Source of the DNA: a virus
Taxonomy: Duplodnaviria; Heunggongvirae; Uroviricota; Caudoviricetes
IMG/VR virus record: IMGVR_UViG_2534681764_000015
DNA: 35,465 nt
Strand: one strand, 5' to 3'
In this document: positions 10,371-29,005 of the stretch, in pieces
How the letters are laid out: each line of letters starts with the position of its first letter
How positions within the stretch are numbered: position 1 is the stretch's first letter
The notes under the pieces: generated by a model
Databases searched by the model: none
Seen by the model: the letters and a program-made list of their open reading frames with translations, nothing else
Told to the model about the DNA's origin: nothing
Program-made: the position numbers and the translations under genes

Positions 10371-12377
10371 ATGCTTAAATTTCGCCGCGAACTTAACGGT
10401 TACGGTGGAGTTATTAACGAAGGGCATAACGATCAATACGAATTTGAAATTGCTTTCTCCAGTGAACAGCCTTATCAGCGCCAATTCTGGGATGAGCAAA
10501 ATCAAGAAATGGTGGTATTAGATGAAATTCTGGTACATACACCGGAAGCGGTTGATCTGTCTCGTCTGAATAATAACGCTCCGTTGCTGTTCAATCATAT
10601 TTTCGATAATCACATTGGTGTCGTTTGTAACGCTCGAATCGATGCGGATAACGTAGGTCGTGCTCTGGTTAAATTCTCTAAACATGGCACTTTGGCTAAT
10701 GATATTCGCAACAAAGTCATTGAAGGTACGATGGAAAAAATTTCTGTCGGCTATGACATTAAAGAATATCACATCGATTACGCCAAAGGAAAATTGATTG
10801 TTACTAAGTGGGAACCTTTTGAAATTTCATTTGTGACGGTCCCTGCCGATGATACGGTCGGTTTAAATCGCTCTCTAAATACTATCACAGTTAATTTGGA
10901 GGCTAAACGCGATATGACTAAAGAACAAATTGAAGAAATCAAAGAAGAACAAGAATCCGCTCAGGTTGAAGAAACTCCGGTAGAAGAAAATAAAGAATCG
11001 GAAGTTGAAGAAACTCAAGAGCGCCAAGTTGAAGAGAATAAAGAAAATGAAAATCTCGAAGACGGAAAAGACGCTGAACATCCTGAAAGTGTTGATGATG
11101 ATAGTTCAACTGTTCGGGAAGCAGAAGAAGTAAAAGAAGAACGTGAAGCCGCTCCGGTTGAAGAAGAAAAAATCGAAGAAGTGGCTGAACGTTCCGAAGA
11201 AGACGAATTAGAAATCCGCGAGATCGCGCGGGAACTAAATATTGACGACGAAGAATTAGAACGCGCACTAGCAATTAAAGACATGACGCCGGAAGCATTC
11301 CGCACTAAGGCACTAAATAAAATCGCTACTGCTCAACGTAACAACGAACAAATTAATAAGGAACAAATCATGGAAAAAACTTTCGATCTTAATAACGTAA
11401 TTCGCTCTCTGGTAGATGGTGCTGCTCTGGGTGCTAACGAAGCTGAATATTCCGCTATGGCTGCTGGTGCTGCAATGCAGCGTGGTCGTGCTGCTCGTGG
11501 TGGCTCTGTATTCGTTCCGGCTGCTGCTCTGCGTGCTGCTTCCGAAGGTAACACCAAAGCTACTCTGACTGATATCACCGACGAAAAACTGCTGACCGAA
11601 TCCTATGTAGAAATGCTGCTTCCGCAGTCTGTTTTGGGTCGTCTGGGTGTGACTGTTCTGTCTGGTCTGAATGCTCCGATTGCTGTACCGAAAATGACCG
11701 CTTCCAGCGTTGACGCTTTCGGCTTCGTTGATGAAAACGGTGCTGCACCGGAAAGCAAAGCTGAATTTGCAAACGTGAAAATGGCTCCGAAAACTTTTGC
11801 TGGTGGCAACCCGATCAGCCGTCAGTCTCTGAAAACTGTTCCGAATATTGCTACCCTGATCACTGATCACATTAACAAAGCTGTTCGGATCAAACTGGAA
11901 CAACTGATTCTGTCTGACAAAGACAATACTCGTGGTCCGAAAGGTCTGGTTAAACAACTGGTAGACGGTGGTCGCGTTGCTAAGAAAGCCGCTTTCTCTT
12001 ACAAAGACTTCCTGAAAGAAATTGCAGCACTGACCGACGCTGGCGTTCCTGCTCAGGCGATCAAGTTTGCAATGAGCGGTGCAACTGCTGCTGAACTGGA
12101 ATCTACCCTGAAAGATAACGGCGTTTCCGGTTATATCATCGAAAACGGCAAACTGGCTGGTTACGATGTAGTTACTTCTGGTGTTATCCCGGCAGATCAC
12201 ATCGTTCTGGGTGACTTCTCCGGTATCATGATCGGCGAATGGGGTGGTCTGGAACTGGATATGGATGACACTACCTACCGTGCACAGTCTGCTATCGTTC
12301 CGCGTATCTGGGTAGACCTGGACTTCACCGTAGTTCAGCCGGAAGCTCTGAAAGTTCTTCACATCTCCGCTGAATGA
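10371..12377 (+). CDS. prohead protease / Glu-rich scaffold-like linker / HK97-fold major capsid fusion protein (668 aa)
   Basis: N-terminal domain ends with EISFVTVPADD (HK97-type prohead protease signature as recalled); residues about 180-300 are E/K-rich low complexity; C-terminal about 350 aa are capsid-like with strongly biased codon usage. Confidence 0.8.
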   Translation: MLKFRRELNGYGGVINEGHNDQYEFEIAFSSEQPYQRQFWDEQNQEMVVLDEILVHTPEAVDLSRLNNNAPLLFNHIFDNHIGVVCNARIDADNVGRALVKFSKHGTLANDIRNKVIEGTMEKISVGYDIKEYHIDYAKGKLIVTKWEPFEISFVTVPADDTVGLNRSLNTITVNLEAKRDMTKEQIEEIKEEQESAQVEETPVEENKESEVEETQERQVEENKENENLEDGKDAEHPESVDDDSSTVREAEEVKEEREAAPVEEEKIEEVAERSEEDELEIREIARELNIDDEELERALAIKDMTPEAFRTKALNKIATAQRNNEQINKEQIMEKTFDLNNVIRSLVDGAALGANEAEYSAMAAGAAMQRGRAARGGSVFVPAAALRAASEGNTKATLTDITDEKLLTESYVEMLLPQSVLGRLGVTVLSGLNAPIAVPKMTASSVDAFGFVDENGAAPESKAEFANVKMAPKTFAGGNPISRQSLKTVPNIATLITDHINKAVRIKLEQLILSDKDNTRGPKGLVKQLVDGGRVAKKAAFSYKDFLKEIAALTDAGVPAQAIKFAMSGATAAELESTLKDNGVSGYIIENGKLAGYDVVTSGVIPADHIVLGDFSGIMIGEWGGLELDMDDTTYRAQSAIVPRIWVDLDFTVVQPEALKVLHISAE

Positions 12378-14187: not shown

Positions 14188-17100
14188 ATGCAATCAATCC
14201 AATTTAAACGAACTAATGTTTCTGGCAAAAAGCCAACGCCGGAACAATTACAGGTCGGTGAGGTAGCAATCAACCTTAAAGACCATGTTATTTTTACCAA
14301 AGACCGAGATCATGAAGTAGTTCAAATCTCTGTTTCTCCTGAAACTCACGCGGCACTAGAATCTAAAGTTGATGCTAACAAACAAGAATTGGATAGCACA
14401 ATTGCAGTAAATGACCGCAATATTCACGCTAAAGTAGATGAAATTAAACAAACTACTGATGCAACCATCGCAGCAAATCACGCAGAAATTAACAATAAAG
14501 TTGATGTAATTAAACGCGAAACCGACGCGACAATCGAGGCCAATAAAAATAAAGCTGCTTCCGATCTTGCTGGTGTTAAAGCTGAATTGTCGGATACCAT
14601 CAACGCTAATAAAAATGCGGCTGCTGTAGCAACTCAGGAACTGGACACCCGCATCAATAAAAAAGTTGATGATATTAAATCCCGTACCGATGCAACCATC
14701 GTAAGCAATCACAAAGCAATCAATGACAAAGTTGATTTGATTAAGGCAGAAACTGACCGCACTATCGCAGCAAATCACGCCTATGCGGAAAATCAGTTAA
14801 CTGACACCTACAATAACCTTACTGGTGTGATTGCAGCCAATAAGCAAGAGGCAGCGGATAACGTCGCAGCATTAACCCGTGATGTTGAAGCCAAAAATAC
14901 AGCAATTCATAGCAAAGTTGACAATAACAAGTCTTACACTGATTCTGAATTGGCACGCTTAGAAAGCCGTATTGATGCAGCCGATGGATCAAGTGATGGT
15001 AAGTACATCAAAAAGCACGTAAACACTTGCACTGATGGCTATTTGCTGTCTAAGACCGCAAACCCTTTTGATGATCCGAGTGCTCTTAATCTTGATTACT
15101 TTGGTGCATTTCGCATGAATGACCTGGCGGGTCATATTGCAATGATCTTGCATGTTCCGCACCCATCCGGCGTTAATCATGCTCGTGGTTTTGAGTTCAC
15201 TTATGGGTCTAATCCGGTTCCTACGGTAAGAACATACGGCTATGATGAATTGGGACATTTGGCATATTCTCACCGCATGTATCATGAAGGTGATAAACCT
15301 ACTCCGGCTGAAATTGGCGCATATTCGAAAGCAGAAATTGACCGACTGTTCCAGAAGACGCTTAATTTTGGTATCGAGGGTGGTTGGTTTAAACTAGGCA
15401 CTTTGACAATGCCACAACAACACGGTCGCACGGCTAAGATCCGTTTGGTTGGTGGTAACGGTTATAACGTCGGGATGAATGGACAAGCCAATATTATCGA
15501 ATTGGTGATCCGATGCGGCAACAATAGCCCGAAAGGTGTTGTATTCAATGCGTATTATACTATTTGGCATCATGAACAACATTTTTGCGCTATTCCAACC
15601 GATGGCGACAATTACGATCTTTACGCTTACTACGGTGCACATACAGGATTTGTTTTAGCAGAATATCAAGTTTCTTCCGGTGGTGTTTCTTTAAACCTGT
15701 TGGATACTCCTGAATATCTGGGTGGTGAAAAACCTGTTGCAGACGAAATTTTTGATGCTCTTAACATTTCATCGTTCAATAACTTTAGCAACCGTGGAAC
15801 GTTAAATTTTGCTGGAAACCATCAAGGCCAATACGACATTGAGCATTTGAACGAACAGCAAACAAATGCCAAGAAAATGTTGCGTCGCTTCCGTAGTTCT
15901 GCTCCTGCCACTATCTGGCATGAGACAGTTGATGATAACGCATATCGTCTTGCTACTGGATACGAAGATACAAATCAGGAATTATTGCTGACAGTAACAT
16001 CCGGGTTACATGTCAAGAAATTAACATTGGATGGTGGTGTTGGTGGAAATTCTGGTATTGATATTCGTCGAGGACCAAACGAAGCAAGCCATTTTAATTT
16101 CATGGATTATCGCACTGGACAAGATGTTCGTAATGGTTGGTTTGGTTTTGGTGATGGAACAACCAAAGATTTTATTTGGTGGAACGACAACGGTCAAAAC
16201 TCTATAAACCTGATTGCAGATGGTGAATTACATATTTCTGGCGGTAAAGGCCAGAAAATTGTAATGAATAGCGAAGTTGCATTATCTGAAAATGCTCGTT
16301 TGGCTGTTAAAGGTGGCAATTATGGTTTGATTTTACGCAATGATGGTTCTAGCTTCCATATTCTTACTACCGATTTAAAAGATTCTTTTGGTAGTTGGAA
16401 TAATCGCAGACCATTCAGCTATGATTTTGCGGACGGTGGATTGTATTTAGGTGGTACTGCAACCGCTCGTTGTTTGCATCTCGGAATTGATGGTAGTACC
16501 CGTCTTGAAGACAACCTTTTCTTTAAAGCTGGTTCTCGTCAATCTATGGACTATATGGAACTCGTCCATTGGGGTGCAAGCAATACAGGTCGAAATAACG
16601 TTTTAAGTCTTCGTGACTCAAAAGGATTTTTCGCAGAATTTGAACGATTGGGTGATAATACCATTAAAAACACCTTCTTCGGGAAACTTAAAGTTAATCG
16701 TGGTTCTGACGCAATCGTCATGAATGCCGAAACGGGTGATTCGTCTATATATTTGCTGGGTACTTGTGCTGATAATAACAACTGGTATATCGGTAAAGGT
16801 GGTGCTGATAATGGATTAGCGTTCTATAGCTATGCTACTAATGCTGCTATCAATATTACAAACGCGGGTGATATCGCGCTAAGTCCAAAAGGTGTCGAAA
16901 TGACTCATGTCAATAACGTTCGATTCTATGTTCATGGTGAACGTTGGACTGCTAGCCAATCTGGAGGTTGGGGCGATCAATGGGGATTAGAAGCGCCGAT
17001 ATTTGTCGATCATGGTTATGTAGGACCAGATAGCTATTATCCAATTATTAAAGGAAGAAGTTTAATCACCAATCAAGGGTATACAACTGCCGTCGATTTT

Positions 17101-17598
17101 GGTATGCGTCGTGTTCCTCAAAATTGGGGGCAAGCTATTATTCGTGTTGGATCTGCGGAGGCATCGCCAGCGGCTGGTCATCCTCAAGCGGTGTTTGAAT
17201 TTCATCATGATGGTACTTTCTATTCTCCTGGTAATGGTAACTTTAACGATGTTTATATTCGTTCCGATGGTCGTCTGAAAATTAATGTTGAAGATTACGA
17301 AGAAAATGCGGTGGATAAGGTAAATAAACTCAAAGTTAAAACCTACGATAAAGTTAAATCTCTTAATGACCGAGAAGTTATAGGTCATGAGATTGGTATT
17401 ATCGCACAGGATTTACAAGAGGTATTACCGGAAGCTGTTAAAACCGCAAAAATTGGTGGTCTTGATAACCCAGAAGAAATTTTAACAATTTCAAACTCCG
17501 CAGTGAACGCGCTTTTAATTAAAGCGGTCCAAGAAATGAGCGAAGAAAATAAACTTCTTCGTGAACGTCTTGCTGCAATTGAAGCTAAATTAGGGTAA
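14188..17598 (+). CDS. long tail fiber with C-terminal intramolecular chaperone (peptidase S74-like) domain (1136 aa)
   Basis: N-terminal MQSIQFKRTNVSGKKPTPEQLQVGEVAINLKD fiber-anchor-like motif; 24-aa coiled-coil repeats; C-terminal SDGRLK...HEIGIIAQDLQEVLPE...LLRERLAAIEAKLG resembles the self-cleaving chaperone of T5 pb1 and endosialidases. Confidence 0.8.
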   Translation: MQSIQFKRTNVSGKKPTPEQLQVGEVAINLKDHVIFTKDRDHEVVQISVSPETHAALESKVDANKQELDSTIAVNDRNIHAKVDEIKQTTDATIAANHAEINNKVDVIKRETDATIEANKNKAASDLAGVKAELSDTINANKNAAAVATQELDTRINKKVDDIKSRTDATIVSNHKAINDKVDLIKAETDRTIAANHAYAENQLTDTYNNLTGVIAANKQEAADNVAALTRDVEAKNTAIHSKVDNNKSYTDSELARLESRIDAADGSSDGKYIKKHVNTCTDGYLLSKTANPFDDPSALNLDYFGAFRMNDLAGHIAMILHVPHPSGVNHARGFEFTYGSNPVPTVRTYGYDELGHLAYSHRMYHEGDKPTPAEIGAYSKAEIDRLFQKTLNFGIEGGWFKLGTLTMPQQHGRTAKIRLVGGNGYNVGMNGQANIIELVIRCGNNSPKGVVFNAYYTIWHHEQHFCAIPTDGDNYDLYAYYGAHTGFVLAEYQVSSGGVSLNLLDTPEYLGGEKPVADEIFDALNISSFNNFSNRGTLNFAGNHQGQYDIEHLNEQQTNAKKMLRRFRSSAPATIWHETVDDNAYRLATGYEDTNQELLLTVTSGLHVKKLTLDGGVGGNSGIDIRRGPNEASHFNFMDYRTGQDVRNGWFGFGDGTTKDFIWWNDNGQNSINLIADGELHISGGKGQKIVMNSEVALSENARLAVKGGNYGLILRNDGSSFHILTTDLKDSFGSWNNRRPFSYDFADGGLYLGGTATARCLHLGIDGSTRLEDNLFFKAGSRQSMDYMELVHWGASNTGRNNVLSLRDSKGFFAEFERLGDNTIKNTFFGKLKVNRGSDAIVMNAETGDSSIYLLGTCADNNNWYIGKGGADNGLAFYSYATNAAINITNAGDIALSPKGVEMTHVNNVRFYVHGERWTASQSGGWGDQWGLEAPIFVDHGYVGPDSYYPIIKGRSLITNQGYTTAVDFGMRRVPQNWGQAIIRVGSAEASPAAGHPQAVFEFHHDGTFYSPGNGNFNDVYIRSDGRLKINVEDYEENAVDKVNKLKVKTYDKVKSLNDREVIGHEIGIIAQDLQEVLPEAVKTAKIGGLDNPEEILTISNSAVNALLIKAVQEMSEENKLLRERLAAIEAKLG
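14356..14800 (+). repeat. in-frame tandem repeats (about 72 nt / 24 aa) inside tail fiber gene
   Basis: at least five KVDxIKxxTDATIxANHxxIN units. Confidence 0.6.
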
Positions 17599-19841: not shown

Positions 19842-22271
19842 ATGACAAGACATATAGTAACAATAGAAGGGGATAATAAAGGTCTAAGGAGAAGCACCAA
19901 TGAAGCCGCCGACCTTCTCGATAGTTTGTCTGAAAAGGCAAGTAATATTGATTTTGGTGGTGGCTTATCTGGTCTGACTGGATCTCTTCGTGGGATCGCT
20001 GGCTCTGCTGGTTTAGCTGCTGGTGGTATCGGCTTAGTTGCGACCGCAGTGGTTGCAGCCGCTAAAGCTGGCGCGGAATACGTTAAACAATATTCAGAAG
20101 TATCTAAGGCGACCGGACTCTCGATTGAATCCCTTCAAAGACTGGAAAAGGAATTTTCTGGTACTGGCCTAACAGTTGAAAAATTCGGTGATATCAACAA
20201 AGACACCTTAGATAAGATGGGTGATGCATGGGCTAACGGTGGTGGTATTGCTGATGACTTAGAATCGGTTGGCCTTAAGTTAGAAAACTATGCTCACTTC
20301 ATGACTGATCCGCAAGGTGGTATGAAAGCGGCGATCCAAGTGTTCTATGACATGAAGAAAGCCGGAAAATCAATGGCTGAAATCAAGTTCATGATGGAAT
20401 CTTTAGCCAGTGATTCAAGCCATATGACCAGCCAGCTTGAGAAATATAATACTGCTCAAGAGGCGATGATCGCTATTCAGAATCAATCTGTTAACGTCAC
20501 CGAAGAAAACGCTAAAAAATATGATAAATTTTCTCAAAATATCAATAAGCTGGAAAATAACCTGAAAGGTGTCGGTATGACCATTTCTGGTCCGCTGGTT
20601 GATAGTTTAAACTGGTTATTTGACTGGTTTAATATTGATTGGGAAAAGAGTTCTCTATTCAGGGCATTAGATCGACTGAATAAAGAAGGCAAGACCGCAA
20701 CTGGCGGTATTCTTAACGCCAACCATAAAGACGCTCAAAAAATTATTGACAAGTACAATAAAGAAAAGCGTTGGAATAATCTGGCAGATTGGGAAAAGGC
20801 CGCGATCCGTGGTGCTGGTGTCGATCCTCGTACTGCTGGCTTTGATGTTGAAGGATTTAAGAAACGTTTTGGTGATTCTTATAAGAAAAATGGCTCTCTG
20901 ATTGTTGTCGATAACGGGGAACATCTAACCCGCAAGGCAGATCCTAACCGTGATTTGACTATACCAAATAAACCAGTAAGACCAGAATCATTGGGTAAGT
21001 CTGGTAATGAGAAGAAAGCCGAAGAAGAAGCACGCAAGAAAGCGGAAGAGGCAGCTAAAAAGGCTAAGGAAGCCGCAGAAAAAGCACAGAAAGCACGCGA
21101 GGATGCAATCAAGCGACTGAATGCACTTGATGTTAAATTGCAAGGGCAAGTTGCAGCGTCTATCACTTCTCAAAATAGCCAGTTGCAAAACAGCTTAAAA
21201 GATGTGAACGACGCGTTAGCTCTGGGCTTAATCTCTCAGGAAGACGCAGCCGCGAAACGCCAGGCGCTAATCGATCAGAATACTGAAAACGTTTATAAAA
21301 TGATGTTGGGTGCTGATCCGATTGATGCTCTGAATGCTTTAACACAATTGCAACAAATCAGGGACAACGAGCTAGAAAGCCATAAACGGTTACTTGATGG
21401 TAAAGCTATCTCCTACGAAGAATATATGCGTCGTGTGAACGATACCGAGCAAAACTATTCTCAGATTGAAAATTCTTTACAGGGAATGGATGGTTATAAA
21501 ACCAATCAATTAACTAGTAGTTATGATTATCAAGACTCAAATAATCCGTTTGCTAAATTTAATGCAATCGATAAAGAGAAATCGGATGCTGAACAAGATT
21601 ATAAGACCGATAAACTCAAGATTGATGGGATCACCGATCCGGCTAAACGGATGGAAGCATTAGAAAAACTCAATGAAAACCATCAAAAACGAATGGCTGC
21701 AATTGAGAAGAAATATGCTGATGCTCGCCAGTCAATAGCCGATGATATGTACGGCGGTTTTGCTGCTGCAATGACTCTCTTCGGGCAGGAAAACACTAAA
21801 GCTATGCAGATGGCTTTCAATGCTCATAAAGCATTCTCTATCGGACAAGCGACGGTGAACATGTGGACGGCTGCTACCGATGCATGGAACGATCCGACCA
21901 ACGTCACCACAGGTCAAAAAATCGCGGCTGCTGCATTGGCTGTTTCTCAGAACATGGGGAACATCGCAAACATCAAGTCTACTAACGTTAGCGGTATGGC
22001 TCATGATGGTATTGATAACATCCCTCGTGAGGGTACATGGTTGCTTGATAAGGGTGAACGAGTAGTTGATCAGCGTACTAACGGTGATTTGAAAGACTTC
22101 CTTGCTGCTCAAAAATCAGGTGGTGGTAACTCTCAGCCGATTGAAGTTAATGCGCCTTTGAACATTAACGGCAACGTTAATAGCTCAGACAAGATGGTCA
22201 TGGATGCTATCAAACGTCACGCTAAGTTTGTTGCTCAGGCGATAGAAGACGTTCAGCGTCGTAAGATGTAA
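19842..22271 (+). CDS. tail tape measure protein (809 aa)
   Basis: large alpha-helical, Ala/Gly/Lys/Glu-rich protein with coiled-coil segments after the chaperone pair. Confidence 0.85.
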   Translation: MTRHIVTIEGDNKGLRRSTNEAADLLDSLSEKASNIDFGGGLSGLTGSLRGIAGSAGLAAGGIGLVATAVVAAAKAGAEYVKQYSEVSKATGLSIESLQRLEKEFSGTGLTVEKFGDINKDTLDKMGDAWANGGGIADDLESVGLKLENYAHFMTDPQGGMKAAIQVFYDMKKAGKSMAEIKFMMESLASDSSHMTSQLEKYNTAQEAMIAIQNQSVNVTEENAKKYDKFSQNINKLENNLKGVGMTISGPLVDSLNWLFDWFNIDWEKSSLFRALDRLNKEGKTATGGILNANHKDAQKIIDKYNKEKRWNNLADWEKAAIRGAGVDPRTAGFDVEGFKKRFGDSYKKNGSLIVVDNGEHLTRKADPNRDLTIPNKPVRPESLGKSGNEKKAEEEARKKAEEAAKKAKEAAEKAQKAREDAIKRLNALDVKLQGQVAASITSQNSQLQNSLKDVNDALALGLISQEDAAAKRQALIDQNTENVYKMMLGADPIDALNALTQLQQIRDNELESHKRLLDGKAISYEEYMRRVNDTEQNYSQIENSLQGMDGYKTNQLTSSYDYQDSNNPFAKFNAIDKEKSDAEQDYKTDKLKIDGITDPAKRMEALEKLNENHQKRMAAIEKKYADARQSIADDMYGGFAAAMTLFGQENTKAMQMAFNAHKAFSIGQATVNMWTAATDAWNDPTNVTTGQKIAAAALAVSQNMGNIANIKSTNVSGMAHDGIDNIPREGTWLLDKGERVVDQRTNGDLKDFLAAQKSGGGNSQPIEVNAPLNINGNVNSSDKMVMDAIKRHAKFVAQAIEDVQRRKM

Positions 22272-22321
22272 TTAAAAGCCCCCATAGTGATAAATAATCA
22301 TAAAACTATGGGGGCTTTTCT

Positions 22322-22882
22322 ATGTTCAAATCCAAGAATATTAAAATCACAGATTTTACTCTTAAATCAAAACAGCCTTTCTTCAAGGCGCAATCTATCT
22401 CCGGTAAGTTCCAGCGTCGCTTTACTGGCATCCATTTTTACGAAGCAGAATTTACCGCGAATTACATGGCTCAGGATATTAACGAAGTAAAAGAATTTGT
22501 AGCACGTCACCTTTTTGGTCGTCCTTTTAGTGTGCCACTGTCTTACTTTTCAAAATATACAGGCGATGTACGCCAGATGGTTACGGCTGCTGCTGGTACT
22601 GCTCGCGGTGGGCGTAAGGTAAGACTCTCCAACTTCACCGGAACACTGAAAGCGGGAACTGTCATCCAGTTTGAGAACCACAAGAAAATCTACACGATCA
22701 CCGAAGACGTGAAATCAGGTGGTGAAATGAAACTCTTCCCTAACTTGCGTCAAAACGTCCTGGCTGGTGAGGTGATCAAGTATCAGAACGTAGAAGGTGA
22801 ATTTGTTCTCAAAACTGAAAACATCGATTGGAAGATCGCCCAGATTGGCAAGATGAAATTCGAATTAGTGGAGAATGTATAA
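22322..22882 (+). CDS. minor/distal tail protein (186 aa)
   Basis: first gene after tape measure, same operon; position-based. Confidence 0.55.
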   Translation: MFKSKNIKITDFTLKSKQPFFKAQSISGKFQRRFTGIHFYEAEFTANYMAQDINEVKEFVARHLFGRPFSVPLSYFSKYTGDVRQMVTAAAGTARGGRKVRLSNFTGTLKAGTVIQFENHKKIYTITEDVKSGGEMKLFPNLRQNVLAGEVIKYQNVEGEFVLKTENIDWKIAQIGKMKFELVENV

Positions 22883-23535
22883 TGGCAACTATTCAGGAAT
22901 CATTCAGCAAACTATGCACTAATCTGGACTTCATCGAGGTCTACAACGACCAGACAGGTCAGAACGTGTCTAGATTGACGCTACCGCAGCTTTTTTCCAC
23001 TGGATCGATGTTTCACATTATCGAAGTGATTACCGCGTCAGGGGACGTTCTACGGCTTACAGATGGGTACTTCGATTTGGACTATAACGGATTTACATAT
23101 CTCGCAACGGGTGATTTTCTTCAAATCTCATCAAATACCGAAGAGAAGGAGATCAACAACAACGGGATTAACGTAACCGTTTCTAACGTTCGCGAGGAAT
23201 ACATTACCCTGATTCGAAACAAGCAATTCGATAAATCAGATGTGAAAATCGAAATGGTGTTCCTGAACCCTAACACGGGCAAGGTTGAAACCACTTACCC
23301 TGTTTTCCGTGGGGTAGTCGATTCCATCGGGATTAACATCGAACATGAAGATGATGAGTGTAAAAACGAATCAGAATTTCAGCTTAATAGTATCTGGGAA
23401 GTTCTAGATAAAAACGCTCGTAGTCATGCCTCCGATGGTATCCACCGATCCTATGCCGGAAACGAGAATGATCTATTCTTCTCAAGGACCGGGCGCTGGC
23501 AATCGGAAAGCAAGTGGCATTCATCGAAGAAATAA
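22882..23535 (+). CDS. minor tail protein, gpL-position (218 aa)
   Basis: ATG 22882 overlaps upstream stop (TAATG); ORF track 22828..23535 uses an upstream in-frame start. Confidence 0.5.
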   Translation: MATIQESFSKLCTNLDFIEVYNDQTGQNVSRLTLPQLFSTGSMFHIIEVITASGDVLRLTDGYFDLDYNGFTYLATGDFLQISSNTEEKEINNNGINVTVSNVREEYITLIRNKQFDKSDVKIEMVFLNPNTGKVETTYPVFRGVVDSIGINIEHEDDECKNESEFQLNSIWEVLDKNARSHASDGIHRSYAGNENDLFFSRTGRWQSESKWHSSKK

Positions 23536-23581
23536 TCCCTTCTCCCTAAGCCTAGTAAATAACAGCATGGAGGTATTCAAC

Positions 23582-24001
23582 ATGCTAAAAACTAGGCTTA
23601 TCACCGATTACATCAATTCTTTAATAGGTCAGGAGTTCGTTCAAGGCGAGAATGATTGCAATATAATTGCATGTAAGATCATCGATATTCTCGCTGGTAC
23701 TGACCTATATAATTCTCTTTATAAAAAATATTCAACTAAAGAAGAAGGCTTGAAAATCTGCAAAGAATTAAGCGGATACACAAATATCCTTCAACCAATT
23801 AAGAAACATTTCAAATTAGTCACTGATGATTTACAGGACGGCGACTTACTGGTCACAGCCCACAAATTAGGAAACCGCAAATATTATTCCGTAGTTCCTC
23901 ATTATTCCGGTTATGGCCTCGTTGAAGAAGATGGTATCTGGATGACCATTCCTGTTTCAGACATTGACTATGAACAAGTTTATAGATTCGGGGGTGAATA
24001 A
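23582..24001 (+). CDS. tail assembly protein, gpK-position, possible NlpC/P60-like Cys-His protein (139 aa)
   Basis: ATG 23582 with GGAGGT 8 nt upstream; ENDCNIIAC and downstream His; position between L-like and I/J-like genes. Confidence 0.45.
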   Translation: MLKTRLITDYINSLIGQEFVQGENDCNIIACKIIDILAGTDLYNSLYKKYSTKEEGLKICKELSGYTNILQPIKKHFKLVTDDLQDGDLLVTAHKLGNRKYYSVVPHYSGYGLVEEDGIWMTIPVSDIDYEQVYRFGGE

Positions 24002-27000
24002 TGGGATTTGAAATATTAGTAGGCGCGGTTATTGCTGGTGCGTCTGCTGGGATGGCTGCTGCTGCAACATTTTCTGTTATGACCGCAGTCGCTATCGGGA
24101 TGGCTGCTGGTGCAATGACCTTGATCGCTTCCACTGTAGGCGCACCAAAAACACCGAAAGTACAAAGCCCAGATAATGCGGTGACACTAGGAACATCAAA
24201 CGATCCGAAAACAGTATTACCCGTTCTTTTTGGTACTACCCGCACGGGTGCAATCTGCGTTTACAAGGCAATTTCACAGCGTGAAAATAACAAGCTGGTA
24301 CAAATTTTTGCTATTGCCGAAGGTGAGATCGATCACTTTAAAGCACTGCACATCGATAATAAAAACGTTCTCATTAGCCAGAATATGACAATTCGTGATG
24401 GCATTCTCGATAAAGGAAACATTAAAGACGAATACCGCAAAGTTTTAGAAGTCGAGTTTCGCACGGGTAAAAATCCTAACACTGCATTGGATTTAGCTAA
24501 ACATCATTTGGGCGCTGATTGGGATGATCGGTATCAGGGTAACGGCATTGCGACCATGTGTATTGTTTTACGTCGTGATGACAAATCTTTGGCTGCTGGT
24601 GTTGATATTCTCCAGCCTAATAGCCAGGTAGCGGTCGATGTTATGGGCTTAAAGATTCGTAACCTTGAAACCAATGCTATTGAGGCTAGCACTAACGGCG
24701 TGGACCAGATTTTCCATTATCTGACAAATACAAAGTATGGTCTTAGTGTACCGATTGAAAATATTAACGTTGATTCATTCCTGAAAGTGCGTAAACAAGT
24801 ACGCCAGATGGATTTACATTCCAACGGTGCATGTGATCCGAACGCCAGCTTTAAAGAGAACTTAACTAGCCTTATGCAGACTTTCGGCGGGGTGATGTTC
24901 GAATCCTTTGGACGTATTACGCTGAAACTGGATGCTCCTGATATTGTTAAGCATACCTTCAATGAAGACAATATCATGATGGGAAAAGTATCACTGAAAA
25001 CAGGTGGCACTAACGGTTATTTCAATACCATTAACGCGATGTATCAAGAACCATCAATCGACTATTCAGAGCAAATGCTACGTTATCCGGCTGATGCTGA
25101 AAACGATGCTACTATTCGTCAAGATGGTCGAATTATCGCTAAAGATATTGAATATCGTTTTGTTAAGTCTAAAGCCCAGATTGATAAACTTGCGAGTGTA
25201 GAACGAAATAAATCTCGTATCACTCAGGTTATCAGCTTTATGACTACTGACGCATTCACCGCCGAAGTATGGGACGTTATCAGCGTAACCTATGATGAAT
25301 TGAAACTGAATAATTCACTTTGGCGCATTACTGCAATTGATCGTTCTATTGATTCTGGTATTGCTGGGATGATGACTATCACCGCCACAGAATATAATTC
25401 TCAGGTTTATACTGACCTGAACTATGCGGCAACTCCAGACAATAGACCTACTGGTTTACCGGATTCAATGACAGTACAGAAACCGACTAATTTCAGAATT
25501 AAGGCAACTGGTGAGACAATCCACGGTAAAAACGTTACTTTGACATGGGATGCACCGGAAGATTTTAACCGCTACGGTTTCCAGATTGATTACCGTGTAA
25601 GTGGATCGCCTAACTGGATTAAGCTGGGGCAGACTTCACAGCAAATTTTCAATATCAATGCACTGGCAAAAGATCGCTCCTACGATTACCGCGTTTGTGC
25701 TTTCGGTATTATTGCTCGTTCCGAATGGGTGGAACTGGTTAACCAGAATCCTACTGTTACCTATGAATTGCCGACTCCGGTTATTCGAATCAAAAATCAG
25801 GGTAGCACGCCTGGTACTTTCGAAGGCAATGATCTGATTATCGAATGGGAAAATCAGCAACAATTAGATGTGATGATCAACGGTGAAGCTAACAAGTTTA
25901 GTGACCTGTTTGAAGCATACATTATCAAGGTAACTAACAAGGCTGGTAAGTCTATTCAGTACCGTACCCGCGATCCTGAATCATGGACTTATACGCTTGA
26001 TATGAACCAGTTTAACGGCCTTTCCCGTGAATTGACGGTAGAAGTATCAGTCAAGGGCTATAACAACTCAGAGAGCGCCCCAGCGCGTTTAGTGGCTATC
26101 AACCCACAACATAAGCCGATGAAAGGTTTTAGTGCGCGTGGTGGCTTTAATACTGCGTTTGTTAGCTGGGCGGATGACGTAGAACATGACTATGCAGGGT
26201 CAATCATCCAGTATGCAACCGATAATACTTTCTCCGATGCAAGGGCAGTGACTACCAATAGCGTTAGTCATACTTCCTTTGATTTGGCTGACGGTGATTA
26301 TTATATCCGTGGTGCTCACTATGATATTTTCGGTATGGATGATGCTGTTTGGTCTGAACCGTATTTCATGCAAATGAAATCTACCATTAGCTGGGACGAT
26401 CAGGACAAAGAAGCACTGGAAGACCTGATTGGTTTACAAGATCGCTTAGATGAAACCATCGCGGATGCTATTGCTCAAGCTGGCGCTAATGCCGATGCTA
26501 AGATTGATGCAATGCATAAACAGATTACTACCGAAACCGGAAAGACGGTCCAAGCCTCAGCCGATACCCTTAAGAATCTGATTGCTACCAGTGAGCAAGC
26601 CAGCGCAACTAAGATTGATCAGGTTAAAGCTGAACTGAAAGGCGATATCACCAAAGAAGTTAGCGCATCCGCTACTACCCTGAAACAAGCAATTGCTACC
26701 AGTGAGGCAGCAAGCGCAAGTAAGATTGATCAAGTTCGGGTAGAAATGGATGGCAAGATTGCTGGTGTGAATCAGGAAGCAGATGTAAAAATCGATGCTT
26801 TGAAGGGAACCATTAACAGCAAATATAATCTGGCAGTTAATGCAGATGGTCGCGTGGCTGGTATTCATATGAGCGCAACCAATGATCCGGCAGAACCGAC
26901 AAGAATCATCTTTACGGCTGATAAAATCGCGGTAGCTCCACAAGACGGATCAGAAGTTTGTCCGTTTGGCATCGAAGATAACAAAGTTTATCTTGATAAT

Positions 27001-27747
27001 GCGATGATTCGTAATGCTGCAATTGGCACAGCCCAGATTAGTGATGCTAGTATCACCACGGCTAAGATCGGCACAGCCCAGATTAACGGCGCTCACATCC
27101 AACACGCACAGATCGGAACAGGTCATATCATTGATGGCTCTATCGATAATGCTAAAATTGGTAACTATATCCAGTCTTATAACTGGAATGGTAACGATGG
27201 ATGGTATATCGGCAAAGATGGCACTTGTCATTTTAGACACGCTAATATTCGTGGTCATTTGGTGGCTGATTCCGGCGAAATGAACAACGTAACGATTAAT
27301 TCAAGTTGCCGCATTTTGGGTATGCTTGATGCTAATCAGGTGCGTGGTGACTTCGTGAAAGTGGTTGGTAGGAGTTTCCCGCATCGCCAACCAAACTGGC
27401 CTGATGGTGCAATCACTGTAAGGGTCGAAGATGATCATCCATTCGATCGCCAAATAGTGATTCCAGCGATTCATCATAACGGGTCTGTTCGTAGTGGCGA
27501 AAGTAGCGATCATTGGGATACTTGCCGACTAATCGTTAAGAAAAATGGTGGTGTTCTATATGATCGCACTGCAACTTCTGGCTGTATGTACAGTGGAGTT
27601 ATTGACATGCCAGCCGGACACGGGGCAGTAACAATGACTTTTGAAGTTTACTGTAAGGGCGTTAACAACTATAACCCAAGTGCATATATCAGCGATCTAA
27701 CGGTAATGGTAACTAAGAAAGCCGCTACTGGTATTTCTGTTTCTTAA
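24001..27747 (+). CDS. central tail fiber / tip attachment protein J-like with gpI-like N-terminus (1248 aa)
   Basis: N-terminal hydrophobic Gly/Ala segment and VLPVLFGTTRTG recall the lambda gpI C-terminus; fibronectin-III-like repeats; C-terminus DDHPFDRQIV...IDMPAGHG...MVTKKAATGISVS recalls the lambda gpJ receptor-binding end. Confidence 0.85.
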   Translation: MGFEILVGAVIAGASAGMAAAATFSVMTAVAIGMAAGAMTLIASTVGAPKTPKVQSPDNAVTLGTSNDPKTVLPVLFGTTRTGAICVYKAISQRENNKLVQIFAIAEGEIDHFKALHIDNKNVLISQNMTIRDGILDKGNIKDEYRKVLEVEFRTGKNPNTALDLAKHHLGADWDDRYQGNGIATMCIVLRRDDKSLAAGVDILQPNSQVAVDVMGLKIRNLETNAIEASTNGVDQIFHYLTNTKYGLSVPIENINVDSFLKVRKQVRQMDLHSNGACDPNASFKENLTSLMQTFGGVMFESFGRITLKLDAPDIVKHTFNEDNIMMGKVSLKTGGTNGYFNTINAMYQEPSIDYSEQMLRYPADAENDATIRQDGRIIAKDIEYRFVKSKAQIDKLASVERNKSRITQVISFMTTDAFTAEVWDVISVTYDELKLNNSLWRITAIDRSIDSGIAGMMTITATEYNSQVYTDLNYAATPDNRPTGLPDSMTVQKPTNFRIKATGETIHGKNVTLTWDAPEDFNRYGFQIDYRVSGSPNWIKLGQTSQQIFNINALAKDRSYDYRVCAFGIIARSEWVELVNQNPTVTYELPTPVIRIKNQGSTPGTFEGNDLIIEWENQQQLDVMINGEANKFSDLFEAYIIKVTNKAGKSIQYRTRDPESWTYTLDMNQFNGLSRELTVEVSVKGYNNSESAPARLVAINPQHKPMKGFSARGGFNTAFVSWADDVEHDYAGSIIQYATDNTFSDARAVTTNSVSHTSFDLADGDYYIRGAHYDIFGMDDAVWSEPYFMQMKSTISWDDQDKEALEDLIGLQDRLDETIADAIAQAGANADAKIDAMHKQITTETGKTVQASADTLKNLIATSEQASATKIDQVKAELKGDITKEVSASATTLKQAIATSEAASASKIDQVRVEMDGKIAGVNQEADVKIDALKGTINSKYNLAVNADGRVAGIHMSATNDPAEPTRIIFTADKIAVAPQDGSEVCPFGIEDNKVYLDNAMIRNAAIGTAQISDASITTAKIGTAQINGAHIQHAQIGTGHIIDGSIDNAKIGNYIQSYNWNGNDGWYIGKDGTCHFRHANIRGHLVADSGEMNNVTINSSCRILGMLDANQVRGDFVKVVGRSFPHRQPNWPDGAITVRVEDDHPFDRQIVIPAIHHNGSVRSGESSDHWDTCRLIVKKNGGVLYDRTATSGCMYSGVIDMPAGHGAVTMTFEVYCKGVNNYNPSAYISDLTVMVTKKAATGISVS

Positions 27748-27852
27748 AATTTAATTCTAATAATTAATCCCGCTTAATTCTTTTGAGTTAGGCGGGATTA
27801 TTTTTATCTAAATAATTCTGCCATTAAATTATATAAAAATATCGGGGGCGTA

Positions 27853-28131
27853 ATGACTGAAATTATATATGGCGGTATCGGTGTTATCGCCTTAATTTGT
27901 GGTGGGCTTTGGAGACTTCACCGAAATCAATTAGCCACAGAAAATAGATTGTCGAAATTGGAATCCAGCGACGCATTGTTAAACCAGAAGTTTGAGACGA
28001 TGCAGAATAACCATACTCAGATTGCTGAACGTGTTTACCAAATGGAACAAACACTACACGGTATAGAGAAGAAAGTGGTTGCGATGGACGCCAAATTTGA
28101 CCAAGTTCTCGACATACTCAAACAAAAATAA
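27853..28131 (+). CDS. membrane-anchored coiled-coil protein (92 aa), possible lysis accessory
   Basis: N-terminal TM helix IIYGGIGVIALICGGLW then coiled coil. Confidence 0.5.
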   Translation: MTEIIYGGIGVIALICGGLWRLHRNQLATENRLSKLESSDALLNQKFETMQNNHTQIAERVYQMEQTLHGIEKKVVAMDAKFDQVLDILKQK

Positions 28132-28149
28132 TAATAAAGGGGTGAATAT

Positions 28150-28320
28150 ATGAAGAATAAACTTAAGAAATATTTTGGTTATCTCTTGATTGTCGCCCTC
28201 ACTTATAACGTAGCTATTAGACCTCTGCTAACGTCCTTTGGGCTTGAACTCCCGGCTATGACCGTGGATGAACAATTGCTAAGGACACTGGCGGGGGTCT
28301 TTTCGTTATTAGGGGGCTAA
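28150..28320 (+). CDS. small membrane protein (56 aa), possible holin-like
   Basis: ATG 28150 with AAAGGGGTGAA RBS; hydrophobic YFGYLLIVALTYNVAI; below ORF-track cutoff. Confidence 0.35.
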   Translation: MKNKLKKYFGYLLIVALTYNVAIRPLLTSFGLELPAMTVDEQLLRTLAGVFSLLGG

Positions 28321-28321
28321 C

Positions 28322-29005
28322 ATGGCAACCAGTACCAATAAACGAAACGCTCTAAGGACAAAGAAAGCGTTACGCCAATGGACTGATAAAGCAACCGATA
28401 CATTCGAAAGGGCGATAGGGGAAGGGGCGATCTTTGCTGCTCGTGCACTCCAGAAGAAGATTAACAAGAATGTTGATAGACCTACTCGATGGACTCAGCA
28501 AGCTGTAGGTAATACCAACTACAAGAACCGATCAGGGACGAGACACCAAATCTTCATCAAGGGCGCAAGGGATAAGGACAAGAAGATCGGCAGTCAGGAT
28601 GACTATCTGAAACACTATTTCGATGGTGGCAAAATCAATAAGCTAGTTCCAATCGCTAACGGCAAGGTCTTAGACGCCCACGGGAACATTAAGGCCATCA
28701 AAGGCGGTAAGATGATGCGTAACCTCGAAAACGGCAACTTCATCAAGGTAGAGAACAAGGAAGGGACTTTTATCATGAAGAAGTACAAGCCTAAGAAATC
28801 CCGAACCAAACGCGCTAGGAATGGATCGGCGGTGGCAAAACGTCGCTTAGAGAAACGCATACAGAAACAGAGCAAGCGAATTGTTGCCGTTAAATCGGAT
28901 AAAATTTCTACTCGTTATTCGACGCTAGGATCGTGGGAAAGCAACGAAGCAATGATGCTTGAAAACATCAATAAGCACATTAAATCGCGCATGAAATACG
29001 TTTAA
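28322..29005 (+). CDS. highly basic hypothetical protein (227 aa)
   Basis: Lys/Arg-rich throughout; start overlaps previous stop. Confidence 0.55.
   Translation: MATSTNKRNALRTKKALRQWTDKATDTFERAIGEGAIFAARALQKKINKNVDRPTRWTQQAVGNTNYKNRSGTRHQIFIKGARDKDKKIGSQDDYLKHYFDGGKINKLVPIANGKVLDAHGNIKAIKGGKMMRNLENGNFIKVENKEGTFIMKKYKPKKSRTKRARNGSAVAKRRLEKRIQKQSKRIVAVKSDKISTRYSTLGSWESNEAMMLENINKHIKSRMKYV

Follow-up and report, generated by a model that had tools for sequence, protein, structure and literature searches.

A gpI-like N-terminus and a gpJ-like receptor-binding domain in a single tail-tip protein of an Escherichia coli prophage

Organization of the tail-tip gene

The DNA analysed here, referred to as the window, is a stretch of 35,465 nucleotides (IMG/VR record IMGVR_UViG_2534681764_000015; Caudoviricetes) that represents an Escherichia coli prophage. 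An open reading frame (ORF) on its plus strand, at positions 24001-27747, encodes a protein in which elements related to the C-terminal half of phage lambda gpI precede a baseplate hub, a fibre and a receptor-binding domain related to that of lambda gpJ. We consider it likely that this protein is the larger of the two proteins that make up the baseplate hub of a siphovirus-type prophage, and that it extends without interruption into the central fibre. It is a mosaic that combines a two-protein hub of non-lambda type and a built-in plug of the gpI-C type with a fibre and porin-binding tip of the lambda/T1 type. Its parts are listed below.

24001..27747, plus strand, gene for the central tail-tip/hub-fibre protein (ORF of 1248 amino acids, stop codon included)
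24001..24141, plus strand, residues 1-47, Ala/Gly-rich hydrophobic segment of a length sufficient for two helices (hydropathy, gpI alignment); putatively equivalent to helices H1/H2 of gpI and to the iris/penetration domain of megatron proteins
24142..24210, plus strand, residues 48-70, plug-like linker (APKTPKVQSPDNAV...), aligned to the gpI plug region (157-176)
24211..24285, plus strand, residues 71-95 (TVLPVLFGTTRTGAICVYKAIS), gpI-like beta strands, equivalent to gpI 197-218 and T5 pb3 262-285
24286..25470, plus strand, residues 96-490, hub domains of the HDII to HDIV type (hhalign, Foldseek, profile)
25471..26400, plus strand, residues 491-800, three fibronectin type III (FN3) domains (AlphaFold2, Foldseek, weak Pfam fn3)
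26554..26759, plus strand, two copies of a 111-nucleotide (37-amino-acid) direct repeat in the proximal fibre, with 72% nucleotide identity
26791..27276, plus strand, residues 931-1092, tail-tip fibre domain of the central straight fibre (Pfam PF09327 Phage_Tail_Tip/DUF1983)
27394..27744, plus strand, residues 1132-1248, lambda-J-type receptor-binding domain (Pfam PF12421 Ig_GpJ_C)

The ATG start codon shares one base with the TAA stop codon of the preceding gene (TAATG) and follows the ribosome-binding site GGGGGTGA, which indicates translational coupling of the kind typical within a tail operon. An assembly or frameshift artefact that joined two genes was considered and rejected, as more than 100 protein clusters, and distant relatives as well, have the same start and an unbroken frame.

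The N-terminus and lambda gpI

From the letters of the sequence, the initial annotation had proposed that the first ~90 residues (including the peptide VLPVLFGTTRTG, residues 72-83) resemble the C-terminal part of gpI and that no separate I-like gene is present; both proposals hold. BLASTP aligned residues 3-106 with lambda gpI 103-222 at 29% identity (composition-corrected E 4e-5). As a single sequence, the first 140 amino acids had gpI as their top match among all PDB sequences with an E of 0.04, and a profile (A1) built from 27 aligned sequences, i.e. 26 homologous N-termini and that of the window, matched gpI 110-213 with an E of 4e-6 and T5 pb3 262-320 with an E of 2.4e-10. When the whole window was searched with gpI by tblastn, the sole match was at 24073-24321, the start of the same gene, and gpI 1-100, the ubiquitin-like half, had no match in the window.

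By homology to gpI 101-223 and by the shared order of elements, the N-terminus belongs with the C-terminal part of gpI (TAPI-C). It does not belong with Lambda_tail_I (PF06805), the ubiquitin-like beta-grasp domain at gpI 14-97. Of gpI, only the virion-resident half is thus represented, with its hydrophobic helices, plug and beta strands. The roles of these elements have been discussed for lambda (PMC11101478; PMC10721106; PMC12617516), where the plug comprises gpI residues 159-175 and a role of H1/H2 has been described (PMC11101478).

The two parts of the N-terminus contribute unequally to the resemblance. Residues 47-95 scored 64 against the C-terminus of gpI; shuffled sequences scored 21.4 +/- 4.0 and none of 5000 reached 64 (z ~10). 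The hydrophobic residues 1-47, which have a Gly+Ala content of 45% (counted by hand) and 19-residue Kyte-Doolittle means of 1.4-1.8, align with gpI 103-155, but on their own at a level reached by chance (962 of 5000 shuffles). The homology therefore resides in the motifs APK..TP.(V/I)Q..DN, in the gpI plug region 159-175, and VLPVL(F/Y)G..R.G, and the hydrophobic segment resembles gpI in composition only and is shared as a feature. As such it is conserved: a hydrophobic segment of 47 residues is found at the extreme N-terminus across distant relatives. In the AlphaFold2 monomer, residues 1-71 are disordered (predicted local distance difference test score, pLDDT, ~25) and are followed by strands at 79-83 and 85-91 with a pLDDT of 76-83.

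These observations bear on the explanation that composition or convergence produced an artefactual resemblance to gpI and that the hydrophobic N-terminus is only a signal or a membrane anchor in the producing cell. The chance-level score of residues 1-47 would fit it, as would the PDB-wide single-sequence E of only 0.04 and the Pfam search with the N-terminus alone, which gave only noise and no match to Lambda_tail_I. The silence of Pfam is expected, because the Lambda_tail_I model spans gpI 14-97 only. The significant signal lies outside the hydrophobic part, in the two motifs; besides the profile match, an alignment to lambda sequence that starts at residue 49 is described below. Inspection of the N-terminal sequence revealed no lipobox or obvious cleavage site. 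We give the artefact explanation hardly any weight, and homology to the C-terminal half of gpI is the reading followed from here on.

Continuity across the lambda I|J boundary

The gpI and gpJ proteins of lambda are joined through beta-sheet augmentation of HDII (PMC10721106). Profile A1 was aligned by hhalign to an artificial concatenate of gpI 101-223 and gpJ 1-123, which gave one collinear alignment that crosses the junction (E 2.1e-9, probability 96%). It starts at residue 49 and passes from the gpI plug and strands into gpJ 22-52 (LLSVIDAISEGPIEG... aligned with LVQIFAIAEGEIDHF...), with the tail of gpI and the first 20 residues of gpJ as an insertion. The part aligned with gpJ 22-52 corresponds to residues 97-124, and the N-terminus of gpJ alone is matched with an E of 1e-3. 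Both the gpI-like strands (79-83, 85-91) and the gpJ-like strands (98-107, 110-118) are modelled with confidence by AlphaFold2 (pLDDT 76-86). Judged from these alignments, elements that are joined non-covalently in lambda are covalently continuous in the window protein.

This arrangement is widespread. An exhaustive search of 1.84 billion representative proteins with the N-terminal 140 amino acids gave 29 matches at E <= 1e-3. All 29 are at or near a protein N-terminus and 19 of them are in proteins of 650-2330 amino acids; the short ones look like fragments of long proteins at contig ends, and one (P0154) looks like an over-extended start call. The search recovered no free-standing gpI-like protein. 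The contiguous state extends to distant lineages, down to 26% identity. Two other searches gave little: a word-indexed search with the same 140 residues returned only fragments of close relatives, and tblastn against phages returned only Escherichia phage DCP80. In T5, the homologous strand of pb3 lies inside a single-chain hub, directly after the plug, the tip of which is at residue 233 (PMC10038345), and pb3 262-320 is contiguous as well. Fusion of TAPI to TAPJ in some prophages was reported by Iyer, Burroughs and Aravind in 2006, who also defined the TAPI-C domain (PMC1779556). The arrangement was hence already known, and the split into I and J in lambda is one variant among several.

In this light, the proposal of the initial annotation that I and J functions are fused needs to be modified. 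Parts of the gpI-C and gpJ-like types do share one chain. The ubiquitin-like half of gpI is absent, however, the hub is not that of lambda J (see below), and contiguity is a common state rather than a special event. The split state of lambda may be the derived one. At odds we would put just short of even, the I|J boundary cuts a plug-strand-strand segment that is continuous elsewhere, gpI is a fission product that later gained a ubiquitin-like domain processed by the JAB domain of gpK, and the sole virion function of 'I' is that of the plug/membrane-insertion segment. If so, the prophage, which lacks both the ubiquitin-like and the JAB domain and has E. coli as its host, would be a minimal natural system in which to study insertion of the gpI segment into the outer membrane.

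The hub and the fibronectin type III domains

The initial annotation had placed fibronectin-III-like repeats in the middle of the protein. An AlphaFold2 model of residues 1-800 (mean pLDDT 73) contains three FN3 domains at ~496-582, 595-700 and 711-792, with strands of pLDDT 80-92. They are supported by Foldseek matches to FN1-FN3 tandems (E ~1e-15) and by a weak Pfam fn3 match at 506-575. As a whole, the model matches siphophage hub and tail-tip chains with a Foldseek probability of 1.00, the best being those of DT57C (E 8.6e-32) and T5 pb3 (E 9.4e-30), followed by JBD30 (E 3e-22), T1 (E 4.5e-20) and lambda gpJ (E 8e-19); Chi was also matched. Global template modelling (TM) scores are low (0.16-0.27) because the orientations of the domains differ in the monomer model. 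In the sequence, a profile matches pb3 530-943 with an E of 2e-21, and PF13550 Phage-tail_3 is weakly matched at residues 285-447 (19.8 bits, cut-off 23); relatives at 78-86% identity carry a precomputed match to this family. The model thus assigns the protein to the siphophage baseplate hub fold (HDII-HDIV + FN3) of T5 pb3 and lambda gpJ.

Within that fold, the hub is not lambda-like. BLASTP against lambda gpJ detected similarity in the last 180 amino acids and none elsewhere. With the NCBIfam model NF049904 (lambda_TipJ), the protein scored 194.5 bits against a cut-off of 1950, with only residues 1069-1248 aligned (model positions 974-1163), which places it outside the family, and on these grounds a full lambda-J orthologue was rejected.

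The same results bear on another account of how the gpI-like and gpJ-like parts came to share a chain, namely that loss of a stop codon recently added the neighbouring I gene to a true lambda-J orthologue, such that the fusion would be derived and specific to this lineage. The two segments do occur in the order of the lambda genes I and J, and the TAPI-TAPJ fusions in prophages (PMC1779556) provide a precedent. Beyond the confinement of BLAST similarity to the last 180 residues and the lambda_TipJ score, this account has to contend with the surroundings of the gene, since lambda gpM, gpL and gpK gave no tblastn match in the window and the upstream genes belong to other families. The ubiquitin-like half of gpI is moreover absent rather than fused, and the contiguous state is present in distant lineages and in T5 pb3. 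A recent capture is therefore very unlikely in our judgement, and we retain the reading of a non-lambda hub with a plug of its own.

The fibre and the receptor-binding tip

The proximal fibre contains the direct repeat, the copies of which are at 26554-26648 and 26665-26759 and which includes the two peptides put forward as a coiled-coil repeat in the initial annotation, ATSEQASATKIDQVKAELKG (862-881) and ATSEAASASKIDQVRVEMDG (899-918). Copy number varies among relatives, with one copy in proteins of 1197-1228 amino acids and two in proteins of 1245-1260 amino acids and in one partial sequence of 1177. The ensuing fibre domain belongs to PF09327 (67.8 bits against a cut-off of 22, E 1e-18), and in a profile search of PDB the fibre matched the T1 tail fibre (9l9p_S, E 1e-41) and also the fibre of F2-pyocin.

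The last ~130 residues had been likened to the C-terminal domain of gpJ that recognises an outer-membrane porin, a comparison borne out by membership in PF12421 (119.5 bits against a gathering score of 26.2, E 1.4e-34) and by BLASTP, which aligned residues 1073-1247 with lambda gpJ 952-1131 (41% identity, E 1e-34). Pairwise alignments are accordingly significant at both termini of the protein, with gpI at one end and gpJ at the other. The best solved relative is A8 gpJ (9wca, E 2.3e-44), followed by lambda gpJ (8iyk, E 2e-33). A8 is a lambda gpJ chimera with a C-terminal part from an E. coli strain and with OmpC as its receptor (PMC11338833); the receptor of lambda gpJ is LamB. By homology to these two porin-binding domains (PMC11338833), the receptor of the prophage is probably a trimeric outer-membrane porin, and the earlier suggestion of an outer-membrane protein receptor is a reasonable one. 

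Comparison of relatives demonstrates that the receptor-binding module is swapped independently of the remainder of the protein. In one relative (P0005), identity is 96-99% as far as residue 1100 and drops to 66% beyond it. Another (P0065) has the opposite pattern, with 83-89% identity over residues 1-800 (N-terminus, hub and FN3) and 98% from residue 941. In a Salmonella relative (P0101) and in P0127 the C-termini are unrelated (20-24% identity). The exchange boundary lies at ~residues 1095-1120, near lambda residue 964, which is the junction of the engineered gpJ chimera (PMC11338833). The engineered junction has been used to retarget lambda particles (PMC11338833), and the relatives are a source of new receptor-binding alleles on a non-lambda chassis.

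Genes upstream of the tail-tip gene

The tail-tip gene is preceded by the following genes.

19842-22271, tape measure protein
22322..22882, plus strand, distal tail protein (Dit; phrog_1302 'distal tail protein', E 1e-16)
22882..23535, plus strand, separate small hub protein (HDI/attachment domain; DUF2163/phiJL001 Gp84_N type)
23582..24001, plus strand, DUF6950 protein of 139 amino acids at the position of gpK/RcGTA g14 (Pfam DUF6950, E 6e-12)

The small hub protein barely passes the Pfam threshold for PF09931 (26.4 bits, cut-off 26) and matches phrog_2048 with an E of 7e-28. Its names in the Prokaryotic Genome Annotation Pipeline (PGAP) are DUF2163 or baseplate hub domain-containing protein. 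The start of the 139-amino-acid DUF6950 protein agrees with the PGAP annotation of an E. coli relative (L005). Searches of PDB sequences with these two proteins returned nothing useful. In the DUF6950 protein, Cys26 (in GENDCN) and His94 are invariant, and the model (pLDDT 91) has its best fold matches in the NlpC/P60 proteins RipD, MepS and LytE (TM 0.46-0.56, at E values of only 0.1-0.4). Lambda gpK 60-83 weakly matches DUF6950 (E 0.067), and hhalign of DUF6950 against gpK detected no more than the motif around the catalytic cysteine (E 0.09). We tentatively regard the protein as probably of an NlpC/P60-like fold, and it is probably the counterpart of gpK and RcGTA g14 without a JAB domain. 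In operons of the lambda type, ubiquitin-like and JAB domains have been predicted to act as a functional pair (PMC1779556), and their joint absence here fits this prediction.

Several E. coli relatives have a free-standing gene of the NUMOD3 homing-endonuclease type between the small hub and DUF6950 genes (L005 2111-2881). The window has no such gene in the corresponding gap, 23536-23581.

Comparison with known tail tips

With lambda gpI, the protein shares the hydrophobic segment, the plug motif and the VLPVL(Y/F)G strands, matching gpI 103-222, and gpI-C is followed collinearly by gpJ-N. With gpJ, it shares the hub fold, FN3 domains, the tail-tip fibre domain and the receptor-binding domain, at 41-43% identity over the last 132-180 amino acids. 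It is unlike lambda in being one chain instead of two, in the absence of a ubiquitin-like domain and, at the K position, of a JAB domain, and in a hub that carries three FN3 domains and no BLAST-level similarity to gpJ. Its partners also differ, being Dit, a DUF2163 hub devoid of the four-cysteine iron-sulfur site and a DUF6950 protein rather than M, L and K. The TAPI-TAPJ fusions of Iyer et al. differ in turn, since the window protein has TAPI-C only, no ubiquitin-like domain and a partner other than the lambda-type J hub.

The order of the genes for Dit, a small Gp84_N/DUF2163 hub, a small protein at the peptidase position and a large hub is that of RcGTA (g13 + g15) and roseophage R4C, in which the large protein likewise starts with a hydrophobic segment (PMC7296036; PMC10276861). 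In this protein, the megatron, the N-terminal hydrophobic iris/penetration domain closes the channel and has been proposed to enter the outer membrane (PMC7296036; PMC10276861). Gene order assigns the locus to the RcGTA type of two-protein hub, with PF09931 only just passing. The two systems part where the chain here continues into a central fibre and receptor-binding domain of the lambda/T1 type, in place of a fibre-binding domain with separate fibres, and in the small hub, which here lacks the iron-sulfur cysteines of RcGTA.

T5 and DT57C pb3 provide the best structural match by Foldseek, and pb3 is matched by sequence profiles at 262-320 and 530-943. In both proteins a plug precedes the (I/V)PV(V/L)YG strand and FN3 domains follow the hub. 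They differ in that pb3 includes HDI, here a separate protein, in that the plug of T5 is inserted internally and is not a hydrophobic segment at the N-terminus, and in that T5 has separate fibre (pb4) and receptor-binding (pb5) proteins. For the tip, the closest solved counterpart is the OmpC-binding domain of the A8 gpJ chimera (9wca/9wcb), which comes from an E. coli prophage.

A possible mechanism of tail-tip opening

The analysis establishes the succession of domains, their homologies, the neighbouring genes and the modular swapping of receptor-binding domains; trimer geometry, plugging, membrane insertion and receptor class are proposed by homology with the solved tips of lambda, T5 and RcGTA. 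From N- to C-terminus, the chain consists of the hydrophobic segment, the plug-like linker, the gpI-C-type strands, the hub, three FN3 domains, the repeat-containing fibre and the receptor-binding domain. Three copies would form a closed cone, with the small hub protein and the Dit ring above it. The three N-terminal segments would be enclosed in this cone, blocking the channel as plugs and retaining the tape measure protein by its C-terminus. Once the C-terminal domains have bound a trimeric outer-membrane porin, the fibre and the strings of FN3 domains would be rearranged, such that the hub domains open and the plugs are released. The hydrophobic N-termini would be the first to insert into the outer membrane, followed by the tape measure protein and the DNA.

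The last step is the one for which a simpler alternative can be formulated: the N-terminal segment may be purely a lumenal plug and holder of the tape measure protein that never enters the host membrane, with the outer-membrane channel made by the tape measure protein alone. Membrane insertion has been proposed, not shown, for gpI and for the megatron N-terminus (PMC11101478; PMC12617516; PMC7296036), and the authors of the T5 study question whether siphophages in general have a pore-lining hub helix (PMC10038345). Against a plug alone stands the 47-residue segment of such hydropathy, which is conserved at the N-terminus across distant relatives. In lambda, the H1/H2 helices vanish from the density of the open state and point toward the membrane (PMC11101478), and the plugs of T5 refold and anchor in the nanodisc (PMC10038345). 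We consider the plug-only alternative unlikely and favour a segment that serves first as a plug and then enters the outer membrane.

Several points weigh against this mechanism and the hub assignment behind it. The N-terminus is placed in the lumen by homology, and the AlphaFold2 model is that of a monomer. The hydrophobic residues 1-47, which would insert into the membrane, are unmodelled at a pLDDT of ~25 and are the part for which the alignment with gpI is not above chance. Insertion of gpI into the outer membrane is still treated as a hypothesis in the lambda papers (PMC11101478; PMC12617516). The small hub has only two cysteines and would thus be unable to form the four-cysteine iron-sulfur cluster of lambda gpL and RcGTA g13. 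No RcGTA g13 or g15 chain was among the PDB sequence matches, such that neither sequence nor the four-cysteine site places the locus with RcGTA, and the parallel is architectural only. As to the receptor, naming it from the closest solved domain was considered and rejected, as 46% identity to the OmpC binder A8 gpJ and 43% to the LamB binder lambda gpJ do not discriminate between specificities and do not allow one to be transferred.

The value of these findings is mainly in annotation and comparison. In RefSeq, the protein is named no more precisely than 'phage tail tip domain-containing protein', and none of the Pfam models covers the C-terminal half of gpI, so that the plug/penetration segment goes unannotated in this family. 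The prophage could also serve as a minimal E. coli system for the idea that gpI inserts into membranes.

Occurrence of the prophage and other features

A region of 6.5 kb around the tail-tip gene is present in 57 of 5426 complete E. coli genomes at 80-99% identity and is chromosomal in every case. Protein homologues at 71-98% identity are found in prophages of E. coli, Salmonella and Providencia. Megablast of positions 22000-28500 against phage genomes gave no match; the DNA thus has no close counterpart among sequenced phages, and prophages are the only known form of the element. The copy in strain ES2 is located in ycdX and ends beside a large serine recombinase of 559 amino acids and a truncated ycdX (ES2 locus L004 29554-32909), which indicates integration into this gene.

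The nearest protein in phage records, at 38.6% identity, is a 1252-amino-acid homologue from Escherichia phage DCP80. The record (PQ671644) comprises 141 kb, is classified as Straboviridae/Gaprivervirus and encodes motA and endonuclease VII. A gene run of the siphovirus type lies upstream of the homologue, and the record may be either an unusual mosaic or the product of chimeric assembly.

Two further ORFs of the window deserve mention. At 10371-12377 (plus strand), one ORF of 668 amino acids combines a prohead serine protease (Peptidase_S78, 40-162) with a major capsid domain of the HK97 type (410-664). At 14188-17598 (plus strand), an ORF of 1136 amino acids is fibre-like and contains a trimerisation domain of the T4 gp34 type as well as an intramolecular chaperone domain (Peptidase_S74). 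This ORF is located between head and neck genes, an unusual position for a tail fibre, and may for this reason encode a head fibre. Its homologue in ES2 is longer, with a coding sequence of 3711 nucleotides, and is annotated as a 'tail fiber domain-containing protein'.

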